Virus record (IMG/VR): IMGVR_UViG_3300029875_000298
Length of the DNA stretch: 39,557 bases
DNA from: a virus
Taxonomy: Duplodnaviria; Heunggongvirae; Uroviricota; Caudoviricetes
Direction: 5' to 3' (one strand)
In this document: positions 11,908 through 33,206 of the stretch, piece by piece
Numbering within the stretch: position 1 is the stretch's first letter
Layout: every line of letters starts with the position of its first letter
Made by a program: the position numbers and the translations under genes
The notes under the pieces: model-generated
What the model was told of the DNA's origin: nothing
The model's input: only the letters and a program-made list of their open reading frames with translations
The model's database searches: none

Positions 11908-12330
11908 ATGGCAAAAGTATTTACACCAGAAGAGCGGGAAAAAATTAAAGGGCAGGTTGTTGAACTTGTACGTCTGAGCGGTCGCGAGACGTTACGGCAA
12001 CTGGAAGCGAAAACAGGTGCGACAAGATATCTGATGAGTGTTCTCGCCAGAGAGCTGGTCGCCAGTGGTGATGTTTACAATTCAGGCTACGGATTATTCC
12101 CGTCTGAGCAGGCGCGTAAAGACTGGCAAAACGCCCGCAAAAAACTATCAAGGGCAAAGGTGAAGAAACCGGTTGTGGTTGATCCTGACCTTATCTGGTC
12201 ATTACCAGACGGAGAAATACGTCGTTACAACAGACGACAGAATATAATCTGTCGCGAGTGCCGGAAAAGCGAAGCTATGCAGCGAGTGCTGGCGTTTTAT
12301 CAGGGGAAATTTCAGGAGGTGATGCTGTGA
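11908..12330 (+). CDS. hypothetical phage protein, 140 aa
   Basis: ATG at 11908 with GGAGG upstream; basic C-terminal region with a CxxC pair (CRECRK). No family recognised. Confidence 0.4.
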   Translation: MAKVFTPEEREKIKGQVVELVRLSGRETLRQLEAKTGATRYLMSVLARELVASGDVYNSGYGLFPSEQARKDWQNARKKLSRAKVKKPVVVDPDLIWSLPDGEIRRYNRRQNIICRECRKSEAMQRVLAFYQGKFQEVML

Positions 12331-12581
12331 GCGAATCAAAATGTCAGGTTAATGGCAATCAGATAGAACCATGTGCGGTACTGGCAAAAGCCCTTGAGCA
12401 TGATGCTGAATACACGACGCGAAAAGGTCTGCTGATATACAAAATCTGGAATGAGAATTTAACTCGCGCCCCTGATTTGGTGACGTTGCGTTCCGGTGAA
12501 TTTTCTAAATCACCAGTTCGGGTTTCATTTTGCCCGTTCTGCGGTGAAAGTCTGAAAACGTGGGAGAACAGAAATGAATGA
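12327..12581 (+). CDS. hypothetical small protein with C-terminal CPFCG zinc-ribbon-like motif, about 84 aa
   Basis: Open frame with GTG at 12327 overlapping the upstream stop (GTGA), GGAGGTG upstream. C-terminus SFCPFCGESLKTW resembles the CPFCG motif of Lar/RalR. Start is uncertain; the ORF track calls 12258. Confidence 0.35.
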   Translation: MSESKCQVNGNQIEPCAVLAKALEHDAEYTTRKGLLIYKIWNENLTRAPDLVTLRSGEFSKSPVRVSFCPFCGESLKTWENRNE

Positions 12582-12885
12582 AATTAGAGAAATACCAGTA
12601 GAACGTGATGAATATGGCTGCTGGACACATCCTGAATATGAAAAATTCTGTGACGGTCGGGAATATATTTCAACGGAAGAGTTTAACGCCTGGATGGAGG
12701 AAAATAATCTTCAATACGTCCTCTGCTTCAGAGATGAAGGATGTGCTGACCTTGATGCGTGTGATGCTGATATTTCTGCATGGGAACCGGAACGACCAGA
12801 GGGCAATGGATGGTTTATTGGTTCAATACATGACACCGAAGATGGCCCGGTTTGTGTCTGGTTGCGAAATAAGGCTGAAGCATAA
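12574..12885 (+). CDS. hypothetical phage protein, 103 aa, acidic and Cys-containing
   Basis: ATG overlaps the upstream stop (ATGAATGA); GGGAGA RBS; followed at once by a terminator-like hairpin. No family recognised. Confidence 0.45.
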   Translation: MNEIREIPVERDEYGCWTHPEYEKFCDGREYISTEEFNAWMEENNLQYVLCFRDEGCADLDACDADISAWEPERPEGNGWFIGSIHDTEDGPVCVWLRNKAEA

Positions 12886-13090: not shown

Positions 13091-13552
13091 TTATTTGTTT
13101 TGTAATGCTTTTTTTACAACCATAATCATAGAGCTAATGACCTCCAGTGTTATATTTAATGATAATGCAATGGATAATATTTCAAACGTGGTAAATAATC
13201 GCGCTCTTGACATAAAAAACTCCCATTTTGGATATTCTAGCAAAGGTATGTTCATCTCCCTTAAATAAGGAATAAAAACGGATGCACCAAGACAAAAAAT
13301 CAGGATTTTCAAATCTGATTCCAGCTTGACAAAATAATCATCAAATACATGTTTATTATTTTGAGGGCAGATGTTGATTAGCATGCTAAAAATTACTGAT
13401 ATACCAGCGATGATGCCACCTAAGGTGGCACCAATAATACCAGCTGAAGACTGTTCGATTATAGAGTAAGTGTTTTTATCCTCTGAGGAAAAAATAAAGC
13501 AAATTACACCAAGAACAATTAGTCTCACCATCAAGGTTGCTAGTTTTTGCAT
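13091..13552 (-). CDS. small integral membrane protein, 153 aa, about four predicted TM helices; second gene of the candidate accessory cassette
   Basis: Hydrophobic segments LMVRLIVLGVICFIF, AGIIGATLGGIIAGISVIFSMLI, ILIFCLGASVFIPYL, FTTFEILSIALSLNITLEVISSMIMVV; start overlaps the upstream gene stop by 13 nt; AT-rich. No family recognised. Confidence 0.6.
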   Translation of the reverse strand: MQKLATLMVRLIVLGVICFIFSSEDKNTYSIIEQSSAGIIGATLGGIIAGISVIFSMLINICPQNNKHVFDDYFVKLESDLKILIFCLGASVFIPYLREMNIPLLEYPKWEFFMSRARLFTTFEILSIALSLNITLEVISSMIMVVKKALQNK

Positions 13553-14424
13553 TTTTCAAACCGATAATCTTTTCTTACTAGGGAAATAATGTCCTTTACG
13601 TCATTTGCAGAATAACCACTTAATGTGCATTCTGAAAGAGAACCATCTACAAAAATTAATTTTGCTGTAGGCTCACTATTTAAAGTAATACTTTTGGCTG
13701 TAGGACTCTTTTTCCCTTTTATCTGCCAACTTCCTCCGCCATCATTAGTCCAATCAACTAAAACATTTGCCCATGTGGAATCACGAAGATTAAGATTTCC
13801 ATCTTTATTTTCAAATGTTGTGGTTAGAGCAGTAGCATTGGTATCATCTTCTATTTTGTTTAAGGCGTCTGTTAGTGCTTTTTTACTATCCCCAAAAATA
13901 TTTGGCATAACAAGAGCAAATGTCACTTGCTCAATATGCCTTAACTTGTCATATTCAACCCAAAAGTTGTCCTTCTCCAGACAAGGTTCAATAAATATGC
14001 GTAATCCTTTTTCGACGAGGTAATCATTGTTAGATAATTCCTCAAACATCATTGCCGCATTGTGAGCACTTTTAAAAACAGTGGTTTTTCGTTCAATTAA
14101 AATAACTTGTTCTTGACGATCCCATAACCATACTACAGGAGGGAAACTTGGAACATTGTATTCTTGAAAGTCCTCATTGTAACCATGCAGTTTCTTTTGT
14201 TTCGAAATCAAACCTGCCATGACGCCATCAGTCGGGGCGACAGAAAGTTTTAATCTATACTGCCAGTTTTTATGGACAGATGGTGTTTGTGACACTCGTT
14301 TTATATTTTTTGATGCGTGAACGATCGCTTGCTCGAAGTGTTCAATACATCGCTCTTCGCCACTATGCTGAAACAAATCTGGATCTCTGGGCTTTAATAG
14401 TACGCGTAAAGCAAAAAAATACAT
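13540..14424 (-). CDS. hypothetical soluble protein, 294 aa; first gene of the candidate accessory cassette
   Basis: ATG at 14424 with GGAGA 6 nt upstream and a sigma70-like promoter just upstream; the ORF track extends to a GTG at 14460 that would overlap the predicted -10. Possible hydrophobic-D ... ExK arrangement (VVWLWD ... VILIERK). No family recognised. Confidence 0.6.
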   Translation of the reverse strand: MYFFALRVLLKPRDPDLFQHSGEERCIEHFEQAIVHASKNIKRVSQTPSVHKNWQYRLKLSVAPTDGVMAGLISKQKKLHGYNEDFQEYNVPSFPPVVWLWDRQEQVILIERKTTVFKSAHNAAMMFEELSNNDYLVEKGLRIFIEPCLEKDNFWVEYDKLRHIEQVTFALVMPNIFGDSKKALTDALNKIEDDTNATALTTTFENKDGNLNLRDSTWANVLVDWTNDGGGSWQIKGKKSPTAKSITLNSEPTAKLIFVDGSLSECTLSGYSANDVKDIISLVRKDYRFEKCKN

Positions 14425-14452
14425 TGAGAATCTCCATATAAAGTTTACCGCT

Positions 14453-14480
14453 ATTATCACTATTCCGAGGAAACATTCAA
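14453..14480 (-). promoter_or_regulatory. putative sigma70 promoter for the minus-strand two-gene cassette
   Basis: On the minus strand: TTGAAT (plus 14475-14480), 16-nt spacer, GATAAT (plus 14453-14458), then about 25 nt to GGAGA and the ATG at 14424. Confidence 0.45.
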
Positions 14481-17201: not shown

Positions 17202-17277
<76 letters not shown>

Positions 17278-17280
17278 TAT

Positions 17281-17355
<75 letters not shown>

Positions 17356-17743: not shown

Positions 17744-18131
17744 TTCCTTTCTCAGGACAAAAAAATACACGAGCATCCAGGAATACTCGTGGGACAACGT
17801 CCTTTGGATAGCAATTTGCGAGAGGGTGAAAAGTAGCGCGGTCGTCGGATTAAGACCGCGGGACAAAGTCCATGAAGAAGAATAAGTATCGGTCTCCTTC
17901 CGGAGACGAGTTGATATTACTAAGCTTTAAAAATGGTTTAAATCCTCAGATCAACCTTAATTTCAGATAAGGTTTATTTCATTTTCTCCGCGTCACATCC
18001 GACGCACATCACATCAGATAACACCACACAAAAGGCATCTGCGGGTGTCTTTGACGGGGTGTTTTTTACGGGCCGCTGGTGGCCATTTTTTGTTTCCATT
18101 ACACAGCGCCCGCATCTGCGAGGTGGGGGTT

Positions 18132-18347
18132 ATGAAATCCATGGATAAGTTAACAACGGGTGTCGCCTATGGCACCTCCGCAGGCAGTGCTGGCTACTGG
18201 TTTTTACAGCTGCTCGATAAAGTCACGCCCTCACAGTGGGCAGCAATAGGTGTGCTGGGTAGCTTGGTATTTGGCCTGCTGACGTACCTGACAAACCTTT
18301 ATTTCAAGATTAAAGAAGATAAGCGCAAGGCTGCGAGAGGTGAATAA
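18132..18347 (+). CDS. S: pinholin, phage 21 S21-like, 71 aa with dual-start MKSM motif
   Basis: [71 protein letters not shown] matches remembered S21; two TM helices; GGTGGGGG RBS. The ORF track starts at 18045. Confidence 0.85.
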
Positions 18348-18844
18348 TGCCTCCATCATTACGAAAAGCCGTTGCTGCTGCTATTGGTGGCGGAGCAATT
18401 GCTATAGCATCAGTGTTAATCACTGGCCCAAGTGGTAACGATGGTCTGGAAGGTGTCAGCTACATACCATACAAAGATATTGTTGGTGTATGGACTGTAT
18501 GTCACGGGCATACAGGAAAAGACATCATGCTCGGTAAAACGTATACCAAAGCAGAATGCAAAGCCCTCCTGAATAAAGACCTTGCCACGGTCGCCAGACA
18601 AATTAACCCGTACATAAAAGTTGATATACCGGAAACAACGCGCGGCGCTCTTTACTCGTTCGTTTACAACGTGGGCGCTGGCAATTTCAGAACATCGACG
18701 CTTCTTCGCAAAATAAACCAGGGCGATATCAAAGGCGCATGTGATCAGCTACGTCGCTGGACATATGCTGGCGGTAAGCAATGGAAAGGTCTCATGACTC
18801 GTCGTGAGATTGAGCGTGAAATCTGTTTGTGGGGTCAGCAATGA
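18347..18844 (+). CDS. R: SAR endolysin (lysozyme, R21-like), 165 aa
   Basis: N-terminal signal-anchor-release segment rich in Gly/Ala ([20 protein letters not shown]) followed by a lysozyme-like domain; start overlaps the holin stop. Confidence 0.85.
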
Positions 18845-19305
18845 ACAGAGTAACCGCGATTATCTCCGCTCTGGTTATCTGCATCATCGTCTGCCTGTCA
18901 TGGGCTGTTAATCATTACCGTGATAATGCCATTACCTACAAAGCGCAACGCGATAATGTGAAGGAAAAACTCAACCAGGCGACCGCAATCATTACTGACA
19001 TGCAGATACGCCAGCGTGATGTTGCTGCACTCGATGCAAAATACCTGAAGGAGTTAGCTGATGCGAAAGCTGAAAATGATGCTCTGCGTGATGATGTTGC
19101 CGCTGGTCGTCGTCGGTTGCACATCAAAGCAGTCTGTCCGTCCGTGCGTGAAGCCACCATCGCCTCCAGCGTGGATAATGCAGTCTCCCCCAGACTGGCA
19201 GACACCGCTGAACGGGATTATTTCACCCTCCGGGAACGACTGGTAATGATGCAGGCCCAACTTGAAGGTGCTCAGCAATACATAACCGAACAGTGTTTAA
19301 AGTAA
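18841..19305 (+). CDS. Rz: i-spanin Rz, 154 aa
   Basis: N-terminal TM anchor and a coiled-coil-like periplasmic region; ATG overlaps the endolysin stop (ATGA). Confidence 0.8.
19061..19246 (+). CDS. Rz1: o-spanin Rz1 lipoprotein, 61 aa, embedded in the +1 frame of Rz
   Basis: [23 protein letters not shown]... has a lipobox-like LVVVGC and a proline-rich mature region; lies entirely inside Rz. Confidence 0.8.
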
Positions 19306-19442
19306 AATCTTAACTACAATATGATTCATTTTGATGATTGTTTCATAAGGAACAGTGAAGTAAGATCTAAGATGAGTTAAATTTTATACAGTATAATCAT
19401 AATGTTGCAGCAAGGTGGTTATAATTGAAAGAATATTTAGAT

Positions 19443-20900
19443 ATGAATACATCTCATGTAAGAGTTGTTACTCATATGTGTGGGTTCCTGGTTTGGCTCT
19501 ATAGTCTTTCAATGTTGCCACCAATGGTTGTAGCATTGTTTTATAAAGAAAAAAGCCTGTTCGTTTTCTTTATAACTTTCGTTATATTTTTTTGCATTGG
19601 TGGCGGAGCGTGGTATACAACTAAGAAATCTGGTATTCAATTACGTACCCGTGATGGGTTTATTATAATTGTAATGTTTTGGATTTTGTTTTCTGTTATT
19701 AGTGCATTCCCTTTATGGATTGACTCAGAACTTAATTTAACGTTTATTGATGCTCTATTTGAAGGGGTTTCTGGAATAACAACAACAGGAGCAACTGTAA
19801 TTGATGATGTTAGTTCATTACCTCGGGCATATTTGTACTATCGGTCACAGTTAAATTTTATAGGTGGCTTAGGAGTTATTGTTCTGGCGGTTGCTGTATT
19901 GCCATTATTGGGTATTGGTGGTGCAAAGCTTTATCAGTCAGAAATGCCAGGGCCATTTAAGGATGACAAACTTACTCCCCGCCTGGCCGATACGTCACGG
20001 ACACTTTGGATAACTTATTCTTTATTAGGTATTGCTTGTATTGTCTGTTATAGACTTGCAGGAATGCCTTTGTTTGATGCTATTTGTCACGGGATATCCA
20101 CAGTTTCGCTTGGTGGTTTCTCAACTCATAGCGAGAGTATCGGATATTTTAATAACTATTTGGTTGAGCTGGTGGCTGGTTCTTTTTCCCTGCTATCGGC
20201 TTTCAACTTCACCCTTTGGTATATTGTTATTAGCAGGAAAACGTTAAAACCTTTAATCAGAGATATTGAACTTCGTTTCTTTCTGTTAATAGCCTTAGGG
20301 GTGATCATTGTTACCTCTTTCCAGGTCTGGCATATAGGTATGTATGACTTGCCCGGAAGTTTTATTCATTCGTTTTTTCTTGCCAGCTCCATGCTCACTG
20401 ATAATGGTTTAGCTACGCAGGATTATGCAAACTGGCCCACGCACACGATAGTGTTTTTGCTGTTGTCAAGTTTCTTTGGGGGATGTATAGGTTCAACTTG
20501 TGGTGGAATTAAGTCACTTCGATTTCTTATACTTTTCAAACAAAGCAAACACGAGATAAACCAGCTTTCTCATCCCAGAGCGTTGTTGAGTGTAAATGTA
20601 GGAGGGAAGATAGTTACAGATCGTGTAATGAGGTCTGTATGGAGTTTCTTTTTTCTTTATACTCTCTTCACGGTGTTTTTTATACTGGTGTTAAATGGTA
20701 TGGGATATGATTTTCTTACATCATTTGCAACAGTGGCTGCATGTATTAATAATATGGGATTAGGTTTTGGGGCTACTGCATCGTCATTCGGAGTGCTTAA
20801 TGACATTGCAAAATATTTAATGTGCATAGCTATGATTCTTGGTCGCCTTGAAATTTATCCTGTTATTATATTGTTTTCAGGTTTTTTTTGGCGCTCCTAA
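19443..20900 (+). CDS. trkG: TrkG potassium uptake protein (TrkH family), 485 aa
   Basis: Polytopic membrane protein matching remembered K-12 TrkG (MNTSHVRVVTHMCGFLVWLYSL...); noticeably A/T-rich relative to flanking phage genes. Confidence 0.9.
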   Translation: MNTSHVRVVTHMCGFLVWLYSLSMLPPMVVALFYKEKSLFVFFITFVIFFCIGGGAWYTTKKSGIQLRTRDGFIIIVMFWILFSVISAFPLWIDSELNLTFIDALFEGVSGITTTGATVIDDVSSLPRAYLYYRSQLNFIGGLGVIVLAVAVLPLLGIGGAKLYQSEMPGPFKDDKLTPRLADTSRTLWITYSLLGIACIVCYRLAGMPLFDAICHGISTVSLGGFSTHSESIGYFNNYLVELVAGSFSLLSAFNFTLWYIVISRKTLKPLIRDIELRFFLLIALGVIIVTSFQVWHIGMYDLPGSFIHSFFLASSMLTDNGLATQDYANWPTHTIVFLLLSSFFGGCIGSTCGGIKSLRFLILFKQSKHEINQLSHPRALLSVNVGGKIVTDRVMRSVWSFFFLYTLFTVFFILVLNGMGYDFLTSFATVAACINNMGLGFGATASSFGVLNDIAKYLMCIAMILGRLEIYPVIILFSGFFWRS

Positions 20901-21037
20901 TATATGGCTGATTTATAATTGTGAGTTTAATATTATATTGACTCACTCATTGATCCAATACCTAACTTTACCAGCAACACCTCCGCCCCCAGTAGCACTG
21001 GCTGCTGGGGTGCGTTTTATTCATAAAGCAAGGCTGT

Positions 21038-21829
21038 ATGAGCGAGAAATTGAAGATCGTCTATCGCCCTTTACAAGAACTGTCTCCGTATGCACACAAC
21101 GCCAGGACACACAGCCCTGAGCAGGTGGCACAACTGGTAGAAAGCATTAAGCAATTCGGCTGGACTAATCCGGTGCTGATTGATGAAAAGGGCGAAATTA
21201 TTGCTGGTCACGGTCGCGTTATGGCGGCTGAAGTGCTCAAAATGGATTCCATTCCGGTCATCGTTCTGTCTGGTTTGATGGATGATCAGAAAAAGGCGTA
21301 CCGCCTGGCAGATAATCGCCTGCCGATGAATGCTGGCTGGGATGAAGATCTGTTACGGATGGAGCTGTCGGACCTAATCAATGCTGATTTTGATGTCTCC
21401 CTGACAGGCTTCAGCCCGACAGAAATTGATGAACTGTTGACGGATGTTTTGCCCGGTACAGAAAATGAGGAGGAGCCGTATACGACGAAAATTGATACGC
21501 CTGTTTATGAGCCGTCGGGCGGTAAACCGGATATCAGTGAACTGTACGACGATACGAAAACTCAGGAGCTGATCAGCCGGATACGTTCGGCGTCTCTTGA
21601 GCCTGATATTGAGAAATTCCTCCTGTGTGCGGCAGAACGTCACACGGTGTTTAATTTCAGCAGAATTGCGGACTATTACGCTCACGCCCCCGCTGAAATT
21701 CAGTGTTTTTTCGAGGAGTCGGCGCTGGTGATCATTGATTATCAGCAGGCTATTGAAAATGGATTTGTCCGGATGACGCAGCGCATGGTGGAGATCATGC
21801 ATGGTGGTGAGGAGGAGGAATATGCGTGA
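21038..21829 (+). CDS. ParB N-terminal-domain (ParB/Srx-like) protein, 263 aa
   Basis: Characteristic ParB-N motif region (LQELSPYAHNARTHSPEQVAQLV ... IIAGHGRVMAA ... AYRLADNRL); corresponds to the truncated ynaK pseudogene of K-12 Rac by position. Confidence 0.75.
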   Translation: MSEKLKIVYRPLQELSPYAHNARTHSPEQVAQLVESIKQFGWTNPVLIDEKGEIIAGHGRVMAAEVLKMDSIPVIVLSGLMDDQKKAYRLADNRLPMNAGWDEDLLRMELSDLINADFDVSLTGFSPTEIDELLTDVLPGTENEEEPYTTKIDTPVYEPSGGKPDISELYDDTKTQELISRIRSASLEPDIEKFLLCAAERHTVFNFSRIADYYAHAPAEIQCFFEESALVIIDYQQAIENGFVRMTQRMVEIMHGGEEEEYA

Positions 21830-22754
21830 TGATTTTTGCGCCTTTATTCTGACTCACGGGCGACCGGACAAAGTTCTGACTTACCGGACGTTGCGTCGTG
21901 CTGGCTATACCGGGAAAATTTTTATCGTTGTTGATGATGAAGATAAGACACGGCATCAGTACATGGCTGAATTTGGTGAACAGGTGCTGGTGTTTTCCAA
22001 AGCCGATATCGCCAGTCGTTTTGACGAAGCCGATAATTTCGGTGACCGCCGCTCAATTTTTTACGCCCGTAATGCCTGTTTCGACCTGGCAAAACTGGTC
22101 GGGTGTAAATACTTCATTCAGCTCGATGATGATTATCACGAGTTCCAGTTTCGGGTGGATCGCAACTATGACCAGGCCTATTTTCCGATAAGGAAACTGG
22201 ATGCGATCCTTTCTGAAATGCTGGCGTACTACGAATCAATACCTGCTCTTTCCATCGCTATGTCGCAGGGCGGGGATTTTCTTGGTGACAATGGCGGCCA
22301 TGCTTCGTGGGTGAAACGCAAGGCAATGAACAGCTTTATCTGTTCGGTTGATCGACCGTTCTCATTCATGGGGCGCATTAACGAGGATGTGAATACGTAC
22401 ACGAATCTCGGTCGCTGTGGTGAATTGTTTATGACGATCGGTGCTGTCCAGTTAGGGCAGAAACAGACGCAGAAAAACAGCGGCGGAATGACCGAGCTGT
22501 ATCTGGATTCCGGAACCTACGTTAAAAGTTTTTACTCCGTCATGTATGCGCCGTCGTGCGTAAAAATCTCACTGATGGGTGCCAGCCATAAACGCATTCA
22601 CCATCAGGTCACCTGGAACAACGCTGCAGTAAAAATCCTTCACGAAAAATACAGGAAGAAGACACCCTGCATATCAATAGGGGTGACAAATGATTCCGTA
22701 TTCGAAAGTCGAGTCTCTGGCAGCGTGCCGGATGACTGCACAACAAATCGCTGA
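21822..22754 (+). CDS. hypothetical protein, 310 aa, with possible GT-A-fold glycosyltransferase-like signature
   Basis: ATG at 21822 preceded by GGAGGAGG, overlapping the ParB-like stop. N-terminal pattern FILTHGRP ... IFIVVDDEDK ... FIQLDDDY has the spacing of a GT2-type strand/DD/DxD arrangement. Motif-level inference only. Confidence 0.45.
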   Translation: MRDDFCAFILTHGRPDKVLTYRTLRRAGYTGKIFIVVDDEDKTRHQYMAEFGEQVLVFSKADIASRFDEADNFGDRRSIFYARNACFDLAKLVGCKYFIQLDDDYHEFQFRVDRNYDQAYFPIRKLDAILSEMLAYYESIPALSIAMSQGGDFLGDNGGHASWVKRKAMNSFICSVDRPFSFMGRINEDVNTYTNLGRCGELFMTIGAVQLGQKQTQKNSGGMTELYLDSGTYVKSFYSVMYAPSCVKISLMGASHKRIHHQVTWNNAAVKILHEKYRKKTPCISIGVTNDSVFESRVSGSVPDDCTTNR

Positions 22755-22941
22755 CGTTCTGGATGTTGATCTGAACCGACTGAAAGAAAATCGGGAAGCA
22801 ATGACAGATTTTTATGCGGCCATCCGTAAGGGCAGAGCGAAAGGTGAAGCCGAGTTACGAGCGGCATTGTTTAAGCTTGCCAGAAAAGGGGATGCCTTTG
22901 CTCTGCGCGAACTACTCAGGGTGGATAAAAATCAGGACTAA
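22690..22941 (+). CDS. hypothetical small helical protein, 83 aa, upstream of the small terminase
   Basis: ATG with AGGGGTG RBS; overlaps the 3' end of the upstream gene by 65 nt, so one of the two boundaries may be wrong. Confidence 0.35.
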   Translation: MIPYSKVESLAACRMTAQQIADVLDVDLNRLKENREAMTDFYAAIRKGRAKGEAELRAALFKLARKGDAFALRELLRVDKNQD

Positions 22942-22944
22942 CTG

Positions 22945-24042
22945 ATGAGCAGACCGGACTGGGGGGCGTTGCAGCAGGAGTATATTGCTGAATACACCCG
23001 CTCCGGTATATCTCCGGTGGCATGGTGTGAAGCAAGGGGACTGAATTACGCAACAGCCCGTCGTTACATCAAAAAACCTCCGAAAAATGCGCAGACAGAA
23101 ATGCGCAAAACTGCGCAAAAAAGTGCGCAGAAAAAATCTGCGCAGACTGCACAAAAGCGGAACGAAAAATCTCAGGAAAAAAAGCCAGTATTCGATGCGG
23201 GCCTGAATGAGGGCGACGCGGAGGAATTTTCGTTCTGTCCCGATGAATTCGGCATTTCTGACCAGCAGGCTAAGTTTGCGATGCTTGTTGCTCAGGGGAA
23301 AAAGCCGACAGAGGCGTACCGACTAGCCGGTTATGAGGGGCAAGGTGCGACAGCTAACAGCAACGCCAGTCGTATGCTTAGAAATGCCAGGGTTTTTCGC
23401 GCTATCAGCTACTTCCGCAATCAGTACCAGAAACGCTATACCGCAGACCTGGATTTACTGGTGAGTCAGTTGATGGCCATTGTCCTGGCCGACCCCAATC
23501 AGCTTGCACAATTTCGCCGTGTTAACTGCCGTTATTGCTGGGGCGAGAATCATCTCTACCAGTGGCGCGATATAGCAGAATTCGACAAGGCAGCGGCGCA
23601 GGCTTCCAGAGATGGCAAACCCGAACCGGAATATGGAGGCCTCGGCTTTGTTGATAACGCCATACCCAATCCGGACTGCCCGAAGTGCTGCGGTGAGGGA
23701 ACGGGACAGCTTTATATGGCTGATACCACTCTGCTTGATGGGGATGCGCGGCAATTATATGCAGGGGCAAAACTCGGAAAATTCGGCGTTGAGATCCTGC
23801 TGGAGGATAAGGCTGCCGCCCGGCGTGAATTGTTGCGTTTGCTTTCTGCTGGCGGGGCTTTATGTGCAGATAAGCGGCTACAGGAACTGGAAATTGAACG
23901 ACGCAGAATGGAAAACCAGAAGCTGCGCAAAGAGATCGAAACGGTGGAAGATAATGAACATCCCCAGCCTGTGGCGATCAATATTAATGTGGTTGATGCC
24001 AGAAGAGTAAGGAGTGATGAAGATGATCTCTCCGACGCTTAA
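22945..24042 (+). CDS. terminase small subunit, 365 aa, with C-terminal Cys cluster
   Basis: Directly precedes and overlaps the large terminase; N-terminal HTH-like region; Cys clusters CRYCWGENH and CPKCCGEG. Confidence 0.65.
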   Translation: MSRPDWGALQQEYIAEYTRSGISPVAWCEARGLNYATARRYIKKPPKNAQTEMRKTAQKSAQKKSAQTAQKRNEKSQEKKPVFDAGLNEGDAEEFSFCPDEFGISDQQAKFAMLVAQGKKPTEAYRLAGYEGQGATANSNASRMLRNARVFRAISYFRNQYQKRYTADLDLLVSQLMAIVLADPNQLAQFRRVNCRYCWGENHLYQWRDIAEFDKAAAQASRDGKPEPEYGGLGFVDNAIPNPDCPKCCGEGTGQLYMADTTLLDGDARQLYAGAKLGKFGVEILLEDKAAARRELLRLLSAGGALCADKRLQELEIERRRMENQKLRKEIETVEDNEHPQPVAININVVDARRVRSDEDDLSDA

Positions 24043-25324
24043 TGTGCCTCAGGCGCGATTTCTTTCAATGCCCCATAAATTTAAAGCCTATATTGCTGGT
24101 TTTGGCTCGGGCAAAACATGGGTTGGGTGTGGCGGCATATGCAAGGGGATTTGGGAGCATCCAGGTATAAATCAGGGATATTTTGCGCCAACGTATCCCC
24201 AAATTCGCGATATTTTTTACCCTACAGTGGAAGAAGTTGCTGCTGACTGGGGATTGAACGTAAAAATTAATGAGGGAAATAAAGAGGTTCACTTTTATTA
24301 CGGACGCCAGTATCGGGGAACCACTATCTGCAGATCGATGGAGAAGCCACAAACGATCGTCGGTTTCAAAATTGGTAATGCGCTGGTGGATGAACTGGAC
24401 ATTTTGCCGAAGGAAAAAGCCAGAACGGCGTGGCGCAAGATAATTGCGCGTATGCGTTATAAGATTGATGGACTTCGCAACGGTATTGACGTTACAACCA
24501 CGCCGGAAGGATTCAAATTTGTCTACGAGCAGTTTGTTAAAGCCGTGCGTGAAAAAACAGAGCTGGCCTCACTGTATGGTCTGGTGCAGGCATCTACTTT
24601 CGATAATGAAAAGAACCTGCCAGCAGATTACATTCCTTCGCTTCTTGAATCATACCCTCCAGAGCTGATTAAAGCCTATCTTCGAGGACAGTTTACTAAC
24701 CTGACAAGTGGTACTGTTTACCATCAGTTTGACCGGAAACTGAATAATTGCGAAGAAGTGGAGCAGCCAGGGGAGCCGATTTATATTGGGATGGATTTTA
24801 ACGTTGGAAAGATGGCGGGGATCGTCCATGTGCTGCGTTTGGGGCTTCCATGTGCGGTAACTGAAATCATCAATGCCTACGATACGCCGGATATGATCCG
24901 CATCATTAAAGAACGCTTCTGGCTGTATGACGGGAATGATTACCGGAAAGTGAGGGAGATTTATATTTATCCAGATGCTTCCGGAGATTCCAGAAAATCA
25001 AGTAACGCAAGTACGACGGATATAGCCCAGCTTAAGCAGGCTGGTTTTAACGTTGTGGTGAACAGCTCGAACCCGCCAGTAAAAGATCGCGTTAACTCAA
25101 TGAATGCAATGTTCTGCAATGCCAATGGTGAGCGTCGCTATAAAGTTAATGTGAAGCGTTGTCCGGTATATGCCGAATCTCTGGAGCAACAGGTCTGGGA
25201 TGATAAGGGGGAGCCTGATAAAAAATCTGGCAATGATCACCCGAATGATGCCGGAGGTTATTTCATCGTTAAGCAATTCCCTATTGTCAAACCGACCGGA
25301 AGAGTCACATCACTTCGGATTTAA
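24014..25324 (+). CDS. terminase large subunit, 436 aa
   Basis: Walker A-like AGFGSGKTW near the N-terminus, acidic motif GMDFNVG, C-terminal nuclease-like region; followed by the portal gene. Confidence 0.85.
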   Translation: MMKMISPTLNVPQARFLSMPHKFKAYIAGFGSGKTWVGCGGICKGIWEHPGINQGYFAPTYPQIRDIFYPTVEEVAADWGLNVKINEGNKEVHFYYGRQYRGTTICRSMEKPQTIVGFKIGNALVDELDILPKEKARTAWRKIIARMRYKIDGLRNGIDVTTTPEGFKFVYEQFVKAVREKTELASLYGLVQASTFDNEKNLPADYIPSLLESYPPELIKAYLRGQFTNLTSGTVYHQFDRKLNNCEEVEQPGEPIYIGMDFNVGKMAGIVHVLRLGLPCAVTEIINAYDTPDMIRIIKERFWLYDGNDYRKVREIYIYPDASGDSRKSSNASTTDIAQLKQAGFNVVVNSSNPPVKDRVNSMNAMFCNANGERRYKVNVKRCPVYAESLEQQVWDDKGEPDKKSGNDHPNDAGGYFIVKQFPIVKPTGRVTSLRI

Positions 25325-32744: not shown

Positions 32745-33206
32745 ATGAGGTTATGGATGTTTATTCTTAATCAGAAAATTATCATCGGTGGTGAACGCTG
32801 GTTTACCCCAATGAAGGACTTAAAACCTGTAGACGGGTTAAAACTGTTGGTGGCAAGCAGCGATAACGATCAGTATCGCTCCCGTAATGCATTAATCCGT
32901 CGCCACATTGAGAAAATGGATGCCAGTTTGCACGTCGGAACGAAGGAGTTTGATATTGCAAAGGTTTCCGAGGTGGATTCTGTTGATGATTTACTCATTG
33001 ATAATGCTGCTCGTTATCTGCTGAAAGACTGGAAAGGGGTTGGTGAACTGGTTGATGGTGTTGAGGTTGCACTGGAATATACGCCAGAACGAGGGATCGC
33101 GCTGCTTAAGCAGAATCCGGAGTTGTACTGGCAGATCCTTGCAGAAGCAGCCAGCATCGCCCAGGGTAAAGAGCAGCAGAAGCAGGATACGATAAAAAAG
33201 CCATAG
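32745..33206 (+). CDS. tail assembly chaperone (lambda G analogue)
   Basis: Position between the tail tube and tape measure genes; ends with the slippery heptamer A-AAA-AAG. Start uncertain (ATG at 32745, 32757 or 32811). Confidence 0.6.
   Translation: MRLWMFILNQKIIIGGERWFTPMKDLKPVDGLKLLVASSDNDQYRSRNALIRRHIEKMDASLHVGTKEFDIAKVSEVDSVDDLLIDNAARYLLKDWKGVGELVDGVEVALEYTPERGIALLKQNPELYWQILAEAASIAQGKEQQKQDTIKKP

Follow-up and report, generated by a model that had tools for sequence, protein, structure and literature searches.

A ParB-like protein and a TAGT-family glycosyltransferase form a conserved, translationally coupled pair upstream of the terminase genes of a Rac-like Escherichia coli prophage

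The virus record IMGVR_UViG_3300029875_000298 (39,557 nucleotides, Caudoviricetes), the whole of which is referred to here as the window, is a Rac-like lambdoid prophage of Escherichia coli. Just upstream of the terminase genes, at positions 21038–22754, it contains two intact open reading frames (ORFs) that encode a ParB-like protein of 263 residues and a protein of 310 residues that its sequence places in the TAGT/JGT family of glycosyltransferases. The coordinates and position agree with the preliminary description of this DNA, which was made from the letters without database searches. The two genes are paired in phages of Proteobacteria, Firmicutes, Actinobacteria, Bacteroidota, and haloarchaea. 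The most economical reading of the pair, to which we give about an even chance, is that of a late-expressed DNA glycosyltransferase that is tethered or activated by its ParB-like partner.

The glycosyltransferase

The 310-residue protein matches the Pfam family TAGT (PF20691, 'TET-associated glycosyltransferase') with a score of 121.5 bits against a cutoff of 27.5 (E = 6e-35), and the match spans residues 8–222 and positions 4–205 of the 205 positions of the profile. The structural matches of the protein agree with a GT-A (nucleotide-diphospho-sugar transferase) fold and include glycogenins. A GT-A-like transferase had been proposed in the preliminary description from the segments FILTHGRP (residues 8–15), IFIVVDDEDK (residues 33–42), and FIQLDDDY (residues 98–105), all of which are present, and the proposal is borne out by the family and fold matches. 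The protein also matches PHROG 842 (E = 9e-104), the label of which, 'beta-glucosyl-HMC-alpha-glucosyltransferase', is a transferred name and not evidence of function; the recent PGAP label is 'GREB1-related protein'. The comparison with PADLOC gave no match to a defence system, and that of the glycosyltransferase profile with the sequences of solved structures gave nothing meaningful.

The active-site signature R...DDD...ED(Y/F) is formed by Arg14, Asp102–Asp104 at the end of strand beta4, and Glu188 and Asp189 followed by Tyr193, which are invariant or nearly so. Residues R14, D68, R83, D102–D103, D189, G222, T224, K235, P244, and H260–H261 are identical in eight homologues with 24–48% sequence identity, which come from phages of Lactobacillus, Nocardia, Porphyromonas, Vibrio, and Aeromonas and from a haloarchaeal virus. 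By analogy with other GT-A enzymes, His260/His261 would provide the third metal ligand, and the catalytic base would be the 'xED' motif. The R...DDD...EDY/F signature is shared with experimentally active phage GT-A enzymes that modify 5-hydroxymethylcytosine (5hmC) DNA and with JGT of T. cruzi (Pyle et al., bioRxiv 10.1101/2023.12.21.572611). The C-terminal tail of about 25 residues (22690–22754) is specific to E. coli and overlaps the start of an 83-residue ORF with a helix-turn-helix (HTH)-like region; most homologues have 285–290 residues.

The ParB-like partner

The preliminary description had recognised an N-terminal ParB/Srx-type region in the 263-residue protein. The protein scores 27.9 bits with Pfam ParB_N, above the cutoff of 26.3, and its predicted fold is likewise of the ParB/Srx type. 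It also matches PHROG 620 (E = 3e-89). The AlphaFold2 model can be divided into a nucleotide-binding domain (NBD, residues 1–95), helices at residues 103–134, a linker with a predicted local distance difference test (pLDDT) value below 50 (residues 136–169), and a helical C-terminal domain (CTD, residues 170–255).

Conservation was evaluated in 67 non-redundant partners (less than 80% identity) out of 146 full-length pairs. The CTD is the best-conserved part of the partner, with R201, A211, Y214, E226, and D234 retained in 99–100% of the sequences. No Pfam family matches the CTD above its cutoff; the CTD family nevertheless comprises approximately 1179 clusters at 50% identity among 1.84 billion representatives. 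The linker contains a P-x-Y-E-P...P motif, hereafter the YEP motif, in which Y157 is conserved in 96%, E158 in 85%, P159 in 99%, and P164 in 96% of the partners. The corresponding values for the ParB motifs are 99% for N21, 81% for R23, 100% for G57, 91% for R60, and 99–100% for D92–N93.

The N-terminal module is related to that of ParB-fused DNA methyltransferases, as indicated by matches to the PADLOC profile MTase_II PDLC03229 (E = 1.8e-38) and to PHROG 498 (E = 2.5e-50). The comparison with Pfam detected no methyltransferase domain in the 263-residue protein. Furthermore, neither Pfam nor the model provides an HTH family match or a DNA-binding HTH region.

Pairing of the two genes across phages

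The two genes occur together irrespective of which is used as the query. Searching IMG/VR with an E. coli-type TAGT protein, an ORF with the ParB N-terminal domain (ParB-N) and CTD was found directly upstream, overlapping or abutting, in 80 of 80 loci. In the Porphyromonas-type clade (80 loci, approximately 27% identical to the E. coli protein), the partner is located upstream wherever the upstream sequence is present. The reverse search, in which the CTD was the query and the transferase played no role, identified TAGT directly downstream in all 80 loci, one of which was checked by hand. In every tested pair of both clades and of the reverse search, the stop codon of the first gene overlaps or abuts the start codon of the second. 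Genomic co-occurrence, which the preliminary description had suggested as a check on the pair, thus holds in both directions and extends to cultured phages: the order ParB-like gene, TAGT gene, terminase is found in Lactobacillus phages phi jlb1 and c5, Nocardia phage NTR1, a Porphyromonas phage, and the haloarchaeal virus HHTV-2. In phage c5, the pair immediately follows the cos site. An independently annotated metagenomic contig, L197, has the order HNH, ParB_N, TAGT, Terminase_4, TerL; this contig also contains four consecutive GT2-family genes downstream of the capsid gene (17837–20316), which resemble virion-glycosylation clusters.

A Vibrio jumbo phage and the loci L201 and L260 lack ParB-N at this place: the protein encoded directly before TAGT consists there of YEP+CTD alone and is 136–157 residues long. 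The pair of the Vibrio jumbo phage, composed of the standalone CTD protein and TAGT, is set among replication genes. Additional standalone YEP+CTD proteins, with lengths of 128–144 residues, are present in the representative library. Because such proteins precede TAGT, we consider YEP+CTD to be the transferase-specific partner element. ParB-N is a usual but separable addition to it.

A third clade of TAGT proteins, from T4-like Aeromonas phages and their relatives (Aeh1-type), has neither a ParB nor a CTD partner, and carries an N-terminal extension of about 100 residues. It lies among genes for ribonucleotide reductase, helicases, and recombination; Tet_JBP is a neighbour at one locus, and no terminases were found there. 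The extension has the signature NPWDxW..MPxY/F ... DVxxFxKL ... KTKSxWYP (L010 3689–4885, Aeromonas phage Aeh1; L172–L196), and at some loci a separate ORF upstream seems to encode it. Possibly, the extension stands in for the YEP-CTD partner as an alternative accessory domain. A YEP motif shared between the CTD protein and this extension was considered and rejected, as the resemblance is weak, the extension has its own signature, and it does not match the CTD profile.

Organization of the locus

The prophage is integrated, and both an integrase and an excisionase are encoded in the window. The genes are arranged in the order intR, xis, recET, kilR, sieB, the repressor region, replication genes, a Q-like antiterminator, two tRNAs, and the lysis cassette, which is followed by trkG, the ParB-like and glycosyltransferase genes, the genes for the small (TerS) and large (TerL) terminase subunits, the portal gene, and head and tail genes (Table 1). 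The trkG gene (19425–20900), inserted after the lysis cassette and ahead of the ParB-like gene, is low in GC (37–39%), whereas the pair, at 47–50%, is in line with the phage backbone. The strong terminator-like hairpin just before the start codon of the ParB-like gene presumably ends trkG transcription and would be passed by Q-antiterminated late transcription.

Table 1. Coordinates of the features of the ParB-like protein–glycosyltransferase region within the window.
Feature	Position	Strand	Properties and basis
Terminator-like hairpin	20987–21019	+	10-bp stem with 7 GC pairs, T-rich tail; terminator scan
ParB-like partner protein, 263 aa	21038–21829	+	ORF, profile matches, model, dN/dS
ParB/Srx N-domain (aa 1–95) and helical segment (aa 96–135)	21038–21442	+	Predicted nucleotide-binding-type
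Linker, aa 136–169	21443–21544	+	Predicted disordered; pLDDT <50
P-x-Y-E-P...P motif, aa 155–164	21500–21529	+	Within linker; conserved
Helical C-terminal domain (CTD), aa 170–255	21545–21802	+	Conserved; absent from Pfam
Shine-Dalgarno run GAGGAGGAGGA	21809–21819	+	Within 3' end of ParB-like gene; serves glycosyltransferase; read from sequence
TAGT-family GT-A glycosyltransferase, 310 aa	21822–22754	+	ORF, profile matches
Glycosyltransferase R14	21861–21863	+	Motif residue
Glycosyltransferase DDD 102–104	22125–22133	+	Motif residues
Glycosyltransferase ED 188–189	22383–22388	+	Motif residues
Glycosyltransferase HH 260–261	22599–22604	+	Motif residues
Small ORF, 83 aa, TerS-associated HTH-like region	22690–22941	+	PHROG 309 'terminase small subunit', 8e-23
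Terminase small subunit	22945–24042	+	Pfam Terminase_2, 2.6e-8; PHROG 51, 2e-76
Terminase large subunit	24014–25324	+	RefSeq annotation of near-identical records

The ParB-like and glycosyltransferase ORFs overlap by 8 nucleotides (ATGCGTGA), with the start codon ATG at 21822–21824 and the stop codon TGA at 21827–21829. Another in-frame ATG is present at 21801; however, the homologues and the PGAP annotation begin with MRDDFC at 21822. The preliminary description had the transferase start within the stop codon of its partner, behind a strong ribosome-binding site. The ribosome-binding site is there, and the start codon lies two nucleotides before the stop codon instead of within it. The two genes are translationally coupled.

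The length of the 83-residue ORF is counted from its first ATG. PGAP places the start at 22732, and RefSeq labels the product as hypothetical. The ORF overlaps the 3' end of the glycosyltransferase gene.

The tRNA genes, for tRNA-Thr (tgt) and tRNA-Gly (tcc), are located at 17202–17355, between the Q-like antiterminator and the lysis genes. Two adjoining ORFs on the minus strand (13091–14460), encoding 153 and 306 residues, have no match in Pfam or PADLOC. The same slot holds QueH, Hok/Gef, and a Doc-family toxin in related prophages, and the two ORFs could be variable cargo or a defence islet. The close Rac-like relatives L001 and L003 encode a homologue annotated as 'epoxyqueuosine reductase QueH' in the early region (11921–12586), which is unexpected for a lambdoid prophage and is not present in the window.

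Distribution, selection, and the K-12 remnant

Matches to the pair were found in 1566 of 5426 complete E. coli genomes, and 889 genomes (about one in six) cover at least 80% of it. Some strains, such as AH19B041, match the window at 100%. In addition, ten sequenced induced phages carry the pair with 98% identity; vB_EcoS-683R6 and vB_EcoS-666R9 are sequenced induced phages of this type. Where dS is not saturated, dN/dS is 0.11–0.16 for the ParB-like gene and 0.055–0.08 for the glycosyltransferase gene. Both genes are under purifying selection. The dN/dS values and the widespread intactness rule out that the genes are relic pseudogenes.

In E. coli K-12, a deletion of approximately 11.56 kb joins position 21291 of the window to position 32855, and ynaK is therefore the first 86 residues of the ParB-like protein. 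The preliminary description held that K-12 keeps fragments of both genes, as ynaK and ydaY. This is correct for ynaK; ydaY corresponds to window positions 32856–33206 in the tail-chaperone region and is not a fragment of the glycosyltransferase gene, which is wholly absent from K-12. The locus is a deletion hot spot. Approximately half of the matching E. coli genomes keep only N-terminal ParB fragments, or glycosyltransferase fragments joined to tail, Lom, or insertion sequence (IS) sequences. The K-12 remnant also affects annotation. In NZ_CP196316.1 (3424677–3424934), PGAP annotates the first 258 nucleotides of the intact 263-residue ORF as 'ynaK pseudogene, missing C-terminus', and the pseudogene label is seen in records that are 100% identical to the window. 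The label apparently stems from the use of the K-12 protein, a product of the deletion, as the reference, and therefore many E. coli genomes hide an intact gene behind it. The literature on ynaK and on the modification of HHTV-2 DNA yielded nothing relevant.

The terminase of E. coli prophages almost always travels with the pair or its deletion remnants. Nevertheless, the pair is absent from two prophages (L199 and L200, from E. coli ETEC1734 and CFIAFB20190172) whose TerS regions have approximately 90–92% nucleotide identity to that of the window, and which carry other cargo between the lysis cassette and TerS. The slot holds KilA-N, or enterotoxin A-family and ADP-ribosyltransferase/AB5-toxin genes. 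The gene at the portal position of these prophages is annotated as 'anti-CBASS protein Acb1 family'. Furthermore, terminases of at least three unrelated types are found with the pair. Because of the prophages that lack the pair and the variety of terminases, we regard the pair as cargo in the lysis–terminase slot and not as part of the packaging machine.

Proposed function

The preliminary description offered a DNA-modification or anti-restriction module and a packaging accessory as possible functions of the pair, and a DNA-modification module is the reading best supported by homology and genomic context. We propose that the pair may be a self-contained two-subunit phage module for post-replicative DNA glycosylation. 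The 310-residue protein would be a metal-dependent (DxD) GT-A enzyme that uses a nucleotide sugar, and the 263-residue protein would act as its adaptor or activator. The ParB/Srx module would engage DNA, possibly in a clamp-like manner dependent on nucleoside triphosphate (NTP), and the YEP motif and CTD would bind the transferase and position or activate it. The ParB-like activators that phage thymine dioxygenases need on double-stranded DNA (dsDNA) provide a possible parallel for the 263-residue protein. Because the pair heads the late operon, it would act on progeny DNA just ahead of packaging. The modification would presumably protect this DNA in the next host against nucleases or other defences that sense DNA. 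Complex formation, DNA as the substrate, the timing of expression, and the anti-defence purpose are the parts of this proposal that we infer.

Several features of the two proteins weigh against the proposal. The CTD of the ParB-like protein is modelled with low confidence, and so are the C-terminal approximately 100 residues of the glycosyltransferase, although they are conserved. Some partners, including those of NTR1 and the Porphyromonas phage, have lost the Box II arginine, and the GERR motif reads GHGR in the 263-residue protein, so that the catalytic glutamate is replaced by histidine. Dependence of the partner on NTP is doubtful for these two reasons. In addition, a search for repeats around the pair identified no parS-like or other conserved site, with only short matches at chance level.

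The most serious objection is that the known acceptor of the family is apparently missing, because no source of a hydroxymethyl-pyrimidine was found. To our knowledge, all well-understood sugar modifications of phage DNA begin from a hydroxylated base, which is hydroxymethylcytosine (hmC), hydroxymethyluracil (hmU), or 5-hydroxycytosine. The window does not contain Tet_JBP or a thymidylate-synthase-like hydroxymethylase, and neither is recurrent according to Pfam among 222 neighbour ORFs (118 and 104) from 44 diverse loci. Terminase families dominate among the families listed for these neighbours, which also include one Thymidylat_synt and a few N6/N4 methyltransferases. The scans extend to the 25 most frequent families, so that one weak Tet_JBP match could be hidden beyond them, and the conclusion is therefore that a hydroxymethylase is 'not recurrent' and not that it never occurs. 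The complete 31.8-kb genome of phage c5 contains no hydroxymethylase or oxygenase candidate: none of its unassigned ORFs is longer than 208 residues, and none matches an oxygenase. No C5-methyltransferase was found with the pair in the window, among the 25 most frequent neighbour families of the 44 loci, or in phage c5. The association with TET/JBP or another hydroxypyrimidine source that is characteristic of the TAGT family is not seen for the pair in these comparisons, whereas one Tet_JBP gene was found beside the Aeh1-type clade. The lack of a base-making enzyme is common, as approximately 65% of phage glycosyltransferase contigs are without one, and these were set aside as less likely to act on DNA (bioRxiv 10.1101/2023.12.21.572611).

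A bolder version of the DNA-modification proposal would account for the missing acceptor. The pair, with its YEP-CTD element, would be an enzyme of two subunits that attaches sugar directly to ordinary DNA, with no need of a hydroxymethyl handle, and the ParB module would load this enzyme onto phage DNA before packaging. The sugar could be received by an exocyclic amine, by an oxygen of a ring or of a phosphate, or by a DNA end that arises during packaging. We consider this version unlikely.

Alternative explanations

Among the alternatives, the one that survives best is that the transferase glycosylates a protein, which could be the terminase, the portal, a virion or host protein, or the partner itself, through glycogenin-like priming on Tyr157. 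DNA is not the only possible substrate, because GREB1, a relative within the TAGT family, O-GlcNAcylates a protein (PMC7968844), which also counts against the DNA-modification proposal. Conservation of the YEP motif despite its predicted disorder would suit a docking or substrate peptide, glycogenins occur among the structural matches, and these phages provide no evident hydroxylated DNA base. However, the similarity to glycogenins is that of GT-A enzymes in general, and the N-terminal module of the partner is the one fused to DNA methyltransferases. Furthermore, the catalytic and C-terminal motifs of the transferase are common to the ParB-less clade, which is located among replication and nucleotide-metabolism genes with one locus beside Tet_JBP. 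The contig L197 keeps the ParB–TAGT pair despite its dedicated, capsid-adjacent GT2 cluster, and there the TAGT protein is therefore not simply a virion-glycosylation enzyme. On balance, a protein acceptor is rather improbable.

The acceptor could also be a hydroxymethyl-pyrimidine in DNA after all, with the base made by an unrecognised phage oxygenase or present in foreign hmC- or hmU-containing DNA. If the foreign DNA were that of co-infecting T-even-like phages, the pair would serve in inter-phage competition or exclusion. The active-site and C-terminal motifs are invariant in comparison with the Aeh1-type clade, and several ORFs have no Pfam match. In addition, O'Toole et al. report thousands of contigs that match phage 5mYOX profiles and have no TET/JBP annotation, which may encode highly divergent, unannotated 5mYOX-like enzymes (PMC13229309). 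The gene content of phage c5 described above nevertheless speaks against such an enzyme, and phages of hosts from Lactobacillus to Haloarcula share this unit of two genes, to which no third conserved gene belongs. Moreover, the position of the module suggests late expression and not expression in lysogens. We give this explanation a small chance.

It is very unlikely that the ParB-like protein assists packaging at pac or cos, as a nuclease or in site recognition, with the transferase as an unrelated passenger. This was the second function offered in the preliminary description, and it is weakened by the prophages with nearly the same TerS region that carry KilA-N or enterotoxin genes in place of the pair. 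The diversity of the accompanying terminases argues against it as well, and the partner is tied to TAGT and not to the terminase, both in the Vibrio jumbo phage and in the 80 of 80 loci found with the CTD.

Finally, a role of the ParB-like protein in partition or segregation of a plasmid-like prophage state, suggested by its ParB_N domain and by GenBank phage records that name it 'chromosome (plasmid) partitioning protein', is effectively refuted, because the protein is without an HTH or parS-binding domain, a ParA gene within the window, or parS-like repeats; its TIGR00180 (ParB) score of 36 is far below the cutoff of 58, the prophage is integrated, and the glycosyltransferase is coupled to it wherever this can be tested.

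Implications

The locus is a tractable E. coli example of the unexplained majority of phage glycosyltransferases that are not accompanied by an enzyme for a hydroxylated base. If DNA is modified by the pair, the acceptor chemistry is new or the hydroxylated base comes from a hidden source, and the role of ParB as an activator of DNA-modifying enzymes would extend from oxygenases to glycosyltransferases. In particular, if unmodified DNA is the acceptor, about one-sixth of complete E. coli genomes would encode the new chemistry, as would phages of no fewer than five phyla, haloarchaeal viruses among them. If a protein is glycosylated instead, a large family of 'DNA glycosyltransferases' would be redefined.

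The preliminary description called the pair uncharacterised, which is only partly true. The family is represented in Pfam and PHROGs, and the TAGT family, the co-occurrence of ParB, glycosyltransferase, and terminase genes, and the idea of modification enzymes being directed by ParB are already in the literature. The bidirectional pairing of TAGT with YEP-CTD, the CTD as a transferase-specific element, the absence of a hydroxymethylating enzyme from this clade, and the contrast with the ParB-less, Tet_JBP-linked clade may be new, and Iyer et al. 2013, who defined TAGT, may cover part of them.

Comparison with known systems

The ParB-like protein shares the ParB/Srx fold, the GxxR arginine, and the DN (Box III-like) motif with chromosomal and plasmid ParB, Noc, and KorB. 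It differs from these clamps in that no HTH, ParA, or parS was found in the searches described above, the GERR motif is changed to GHGR, and the score is below the TIGR00180 cutoff. The alpha- and beta-glucosyltransferases of phage T4 glycosylate phage DNA post-replicatively and thereby evade restriction, and the likeness to them is only functional. The T4 enzymes have a GT-B fold, act on hmC that is incorporated pre-replicatively, and have no ParB partner.

ParB-domain proteins also occur as fusions to methyltransferases, which are enriched in prophages (Kaljevic et al. 2025, PMC12704722), and, according to the literature, they accompany phage C5-carboxymethyltransferases. The N-terminal approximately 145 residues of the ParB-N-fused methyltransferases (PHROG 498) are homologous to the partner described here. 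In the partner, the place of the fused enzyme is taken by the YEP linker and CTD. The TAGT protein is a separate, translationally coupled polypeptide.

The GT-A DNA glycosyltransferases associated with 5mYOX/TET and the kinetoplastid JGT belong to the same Pfam family as the 310-residue protein and share its GT-A fold and R...DDD...ED(x3)Y motif. The characterised TAGT/JGT relatives add sugars to hydroxymethyl-pyrimidines in DNA. Like the enzyme of the window, the 5mYOX/TET-associated enzymes are phage-encoded and often located near ParB and terminase genes. The co-occurrence of ParB, glycosyltransferase, and terminase genes has been reported in mining studies (bioRxiv 10.1101/2023.12.21.572611; PMC13229309), and glycosyltransferases, ParBs, and terminases are the commonest neighbours of 5mYOX (PMC13229309). 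In contrast to the 5mYOX-associated enzymes, no dioxygenase, C5-methyltransferase, or hydroxymethylase was found with the pair described here, and the transferase is coupled to a YEP+CTD partner wherever this can be tested.

The closest parallel in architecture is 5mYOX176 with ParB176. O'Toole et al. (2026) showed that, in one subclass of phage thymine dioxygenases, activity on dsDNA depends on a cognate ParB-like protein, that both the NBD and CTD of the latter are required, and that the pairs are cognate-specific (PMC13229309). ParB176 is described there as having an NBD, a structured segment of about 20 residues, an unstructured linker of about 50 residues, and a CTD, with no DNA-binding domain (PMC13229309). 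Compared with this published description, the 263-residue partner has the same architecture of an NBD, a helical segment, a linker of about 35–50 residues, and a CTD, also without an HTH, and the NTP-motif residues are largely conserved. In both systems, the ParB protein adjoins an enzyme of the post-replicative DNA-modification type in a cluster that contains a terminase. The enzyme partnered with ParB in the E. coli prophage is a glycosyltransferase and not an Fe(II)/2-oxoglutarate (2OG) dioxygenase. The pair may thus work in the manner of the ParB-dependent dioxygenases, while not being a member of that family as it is defined.

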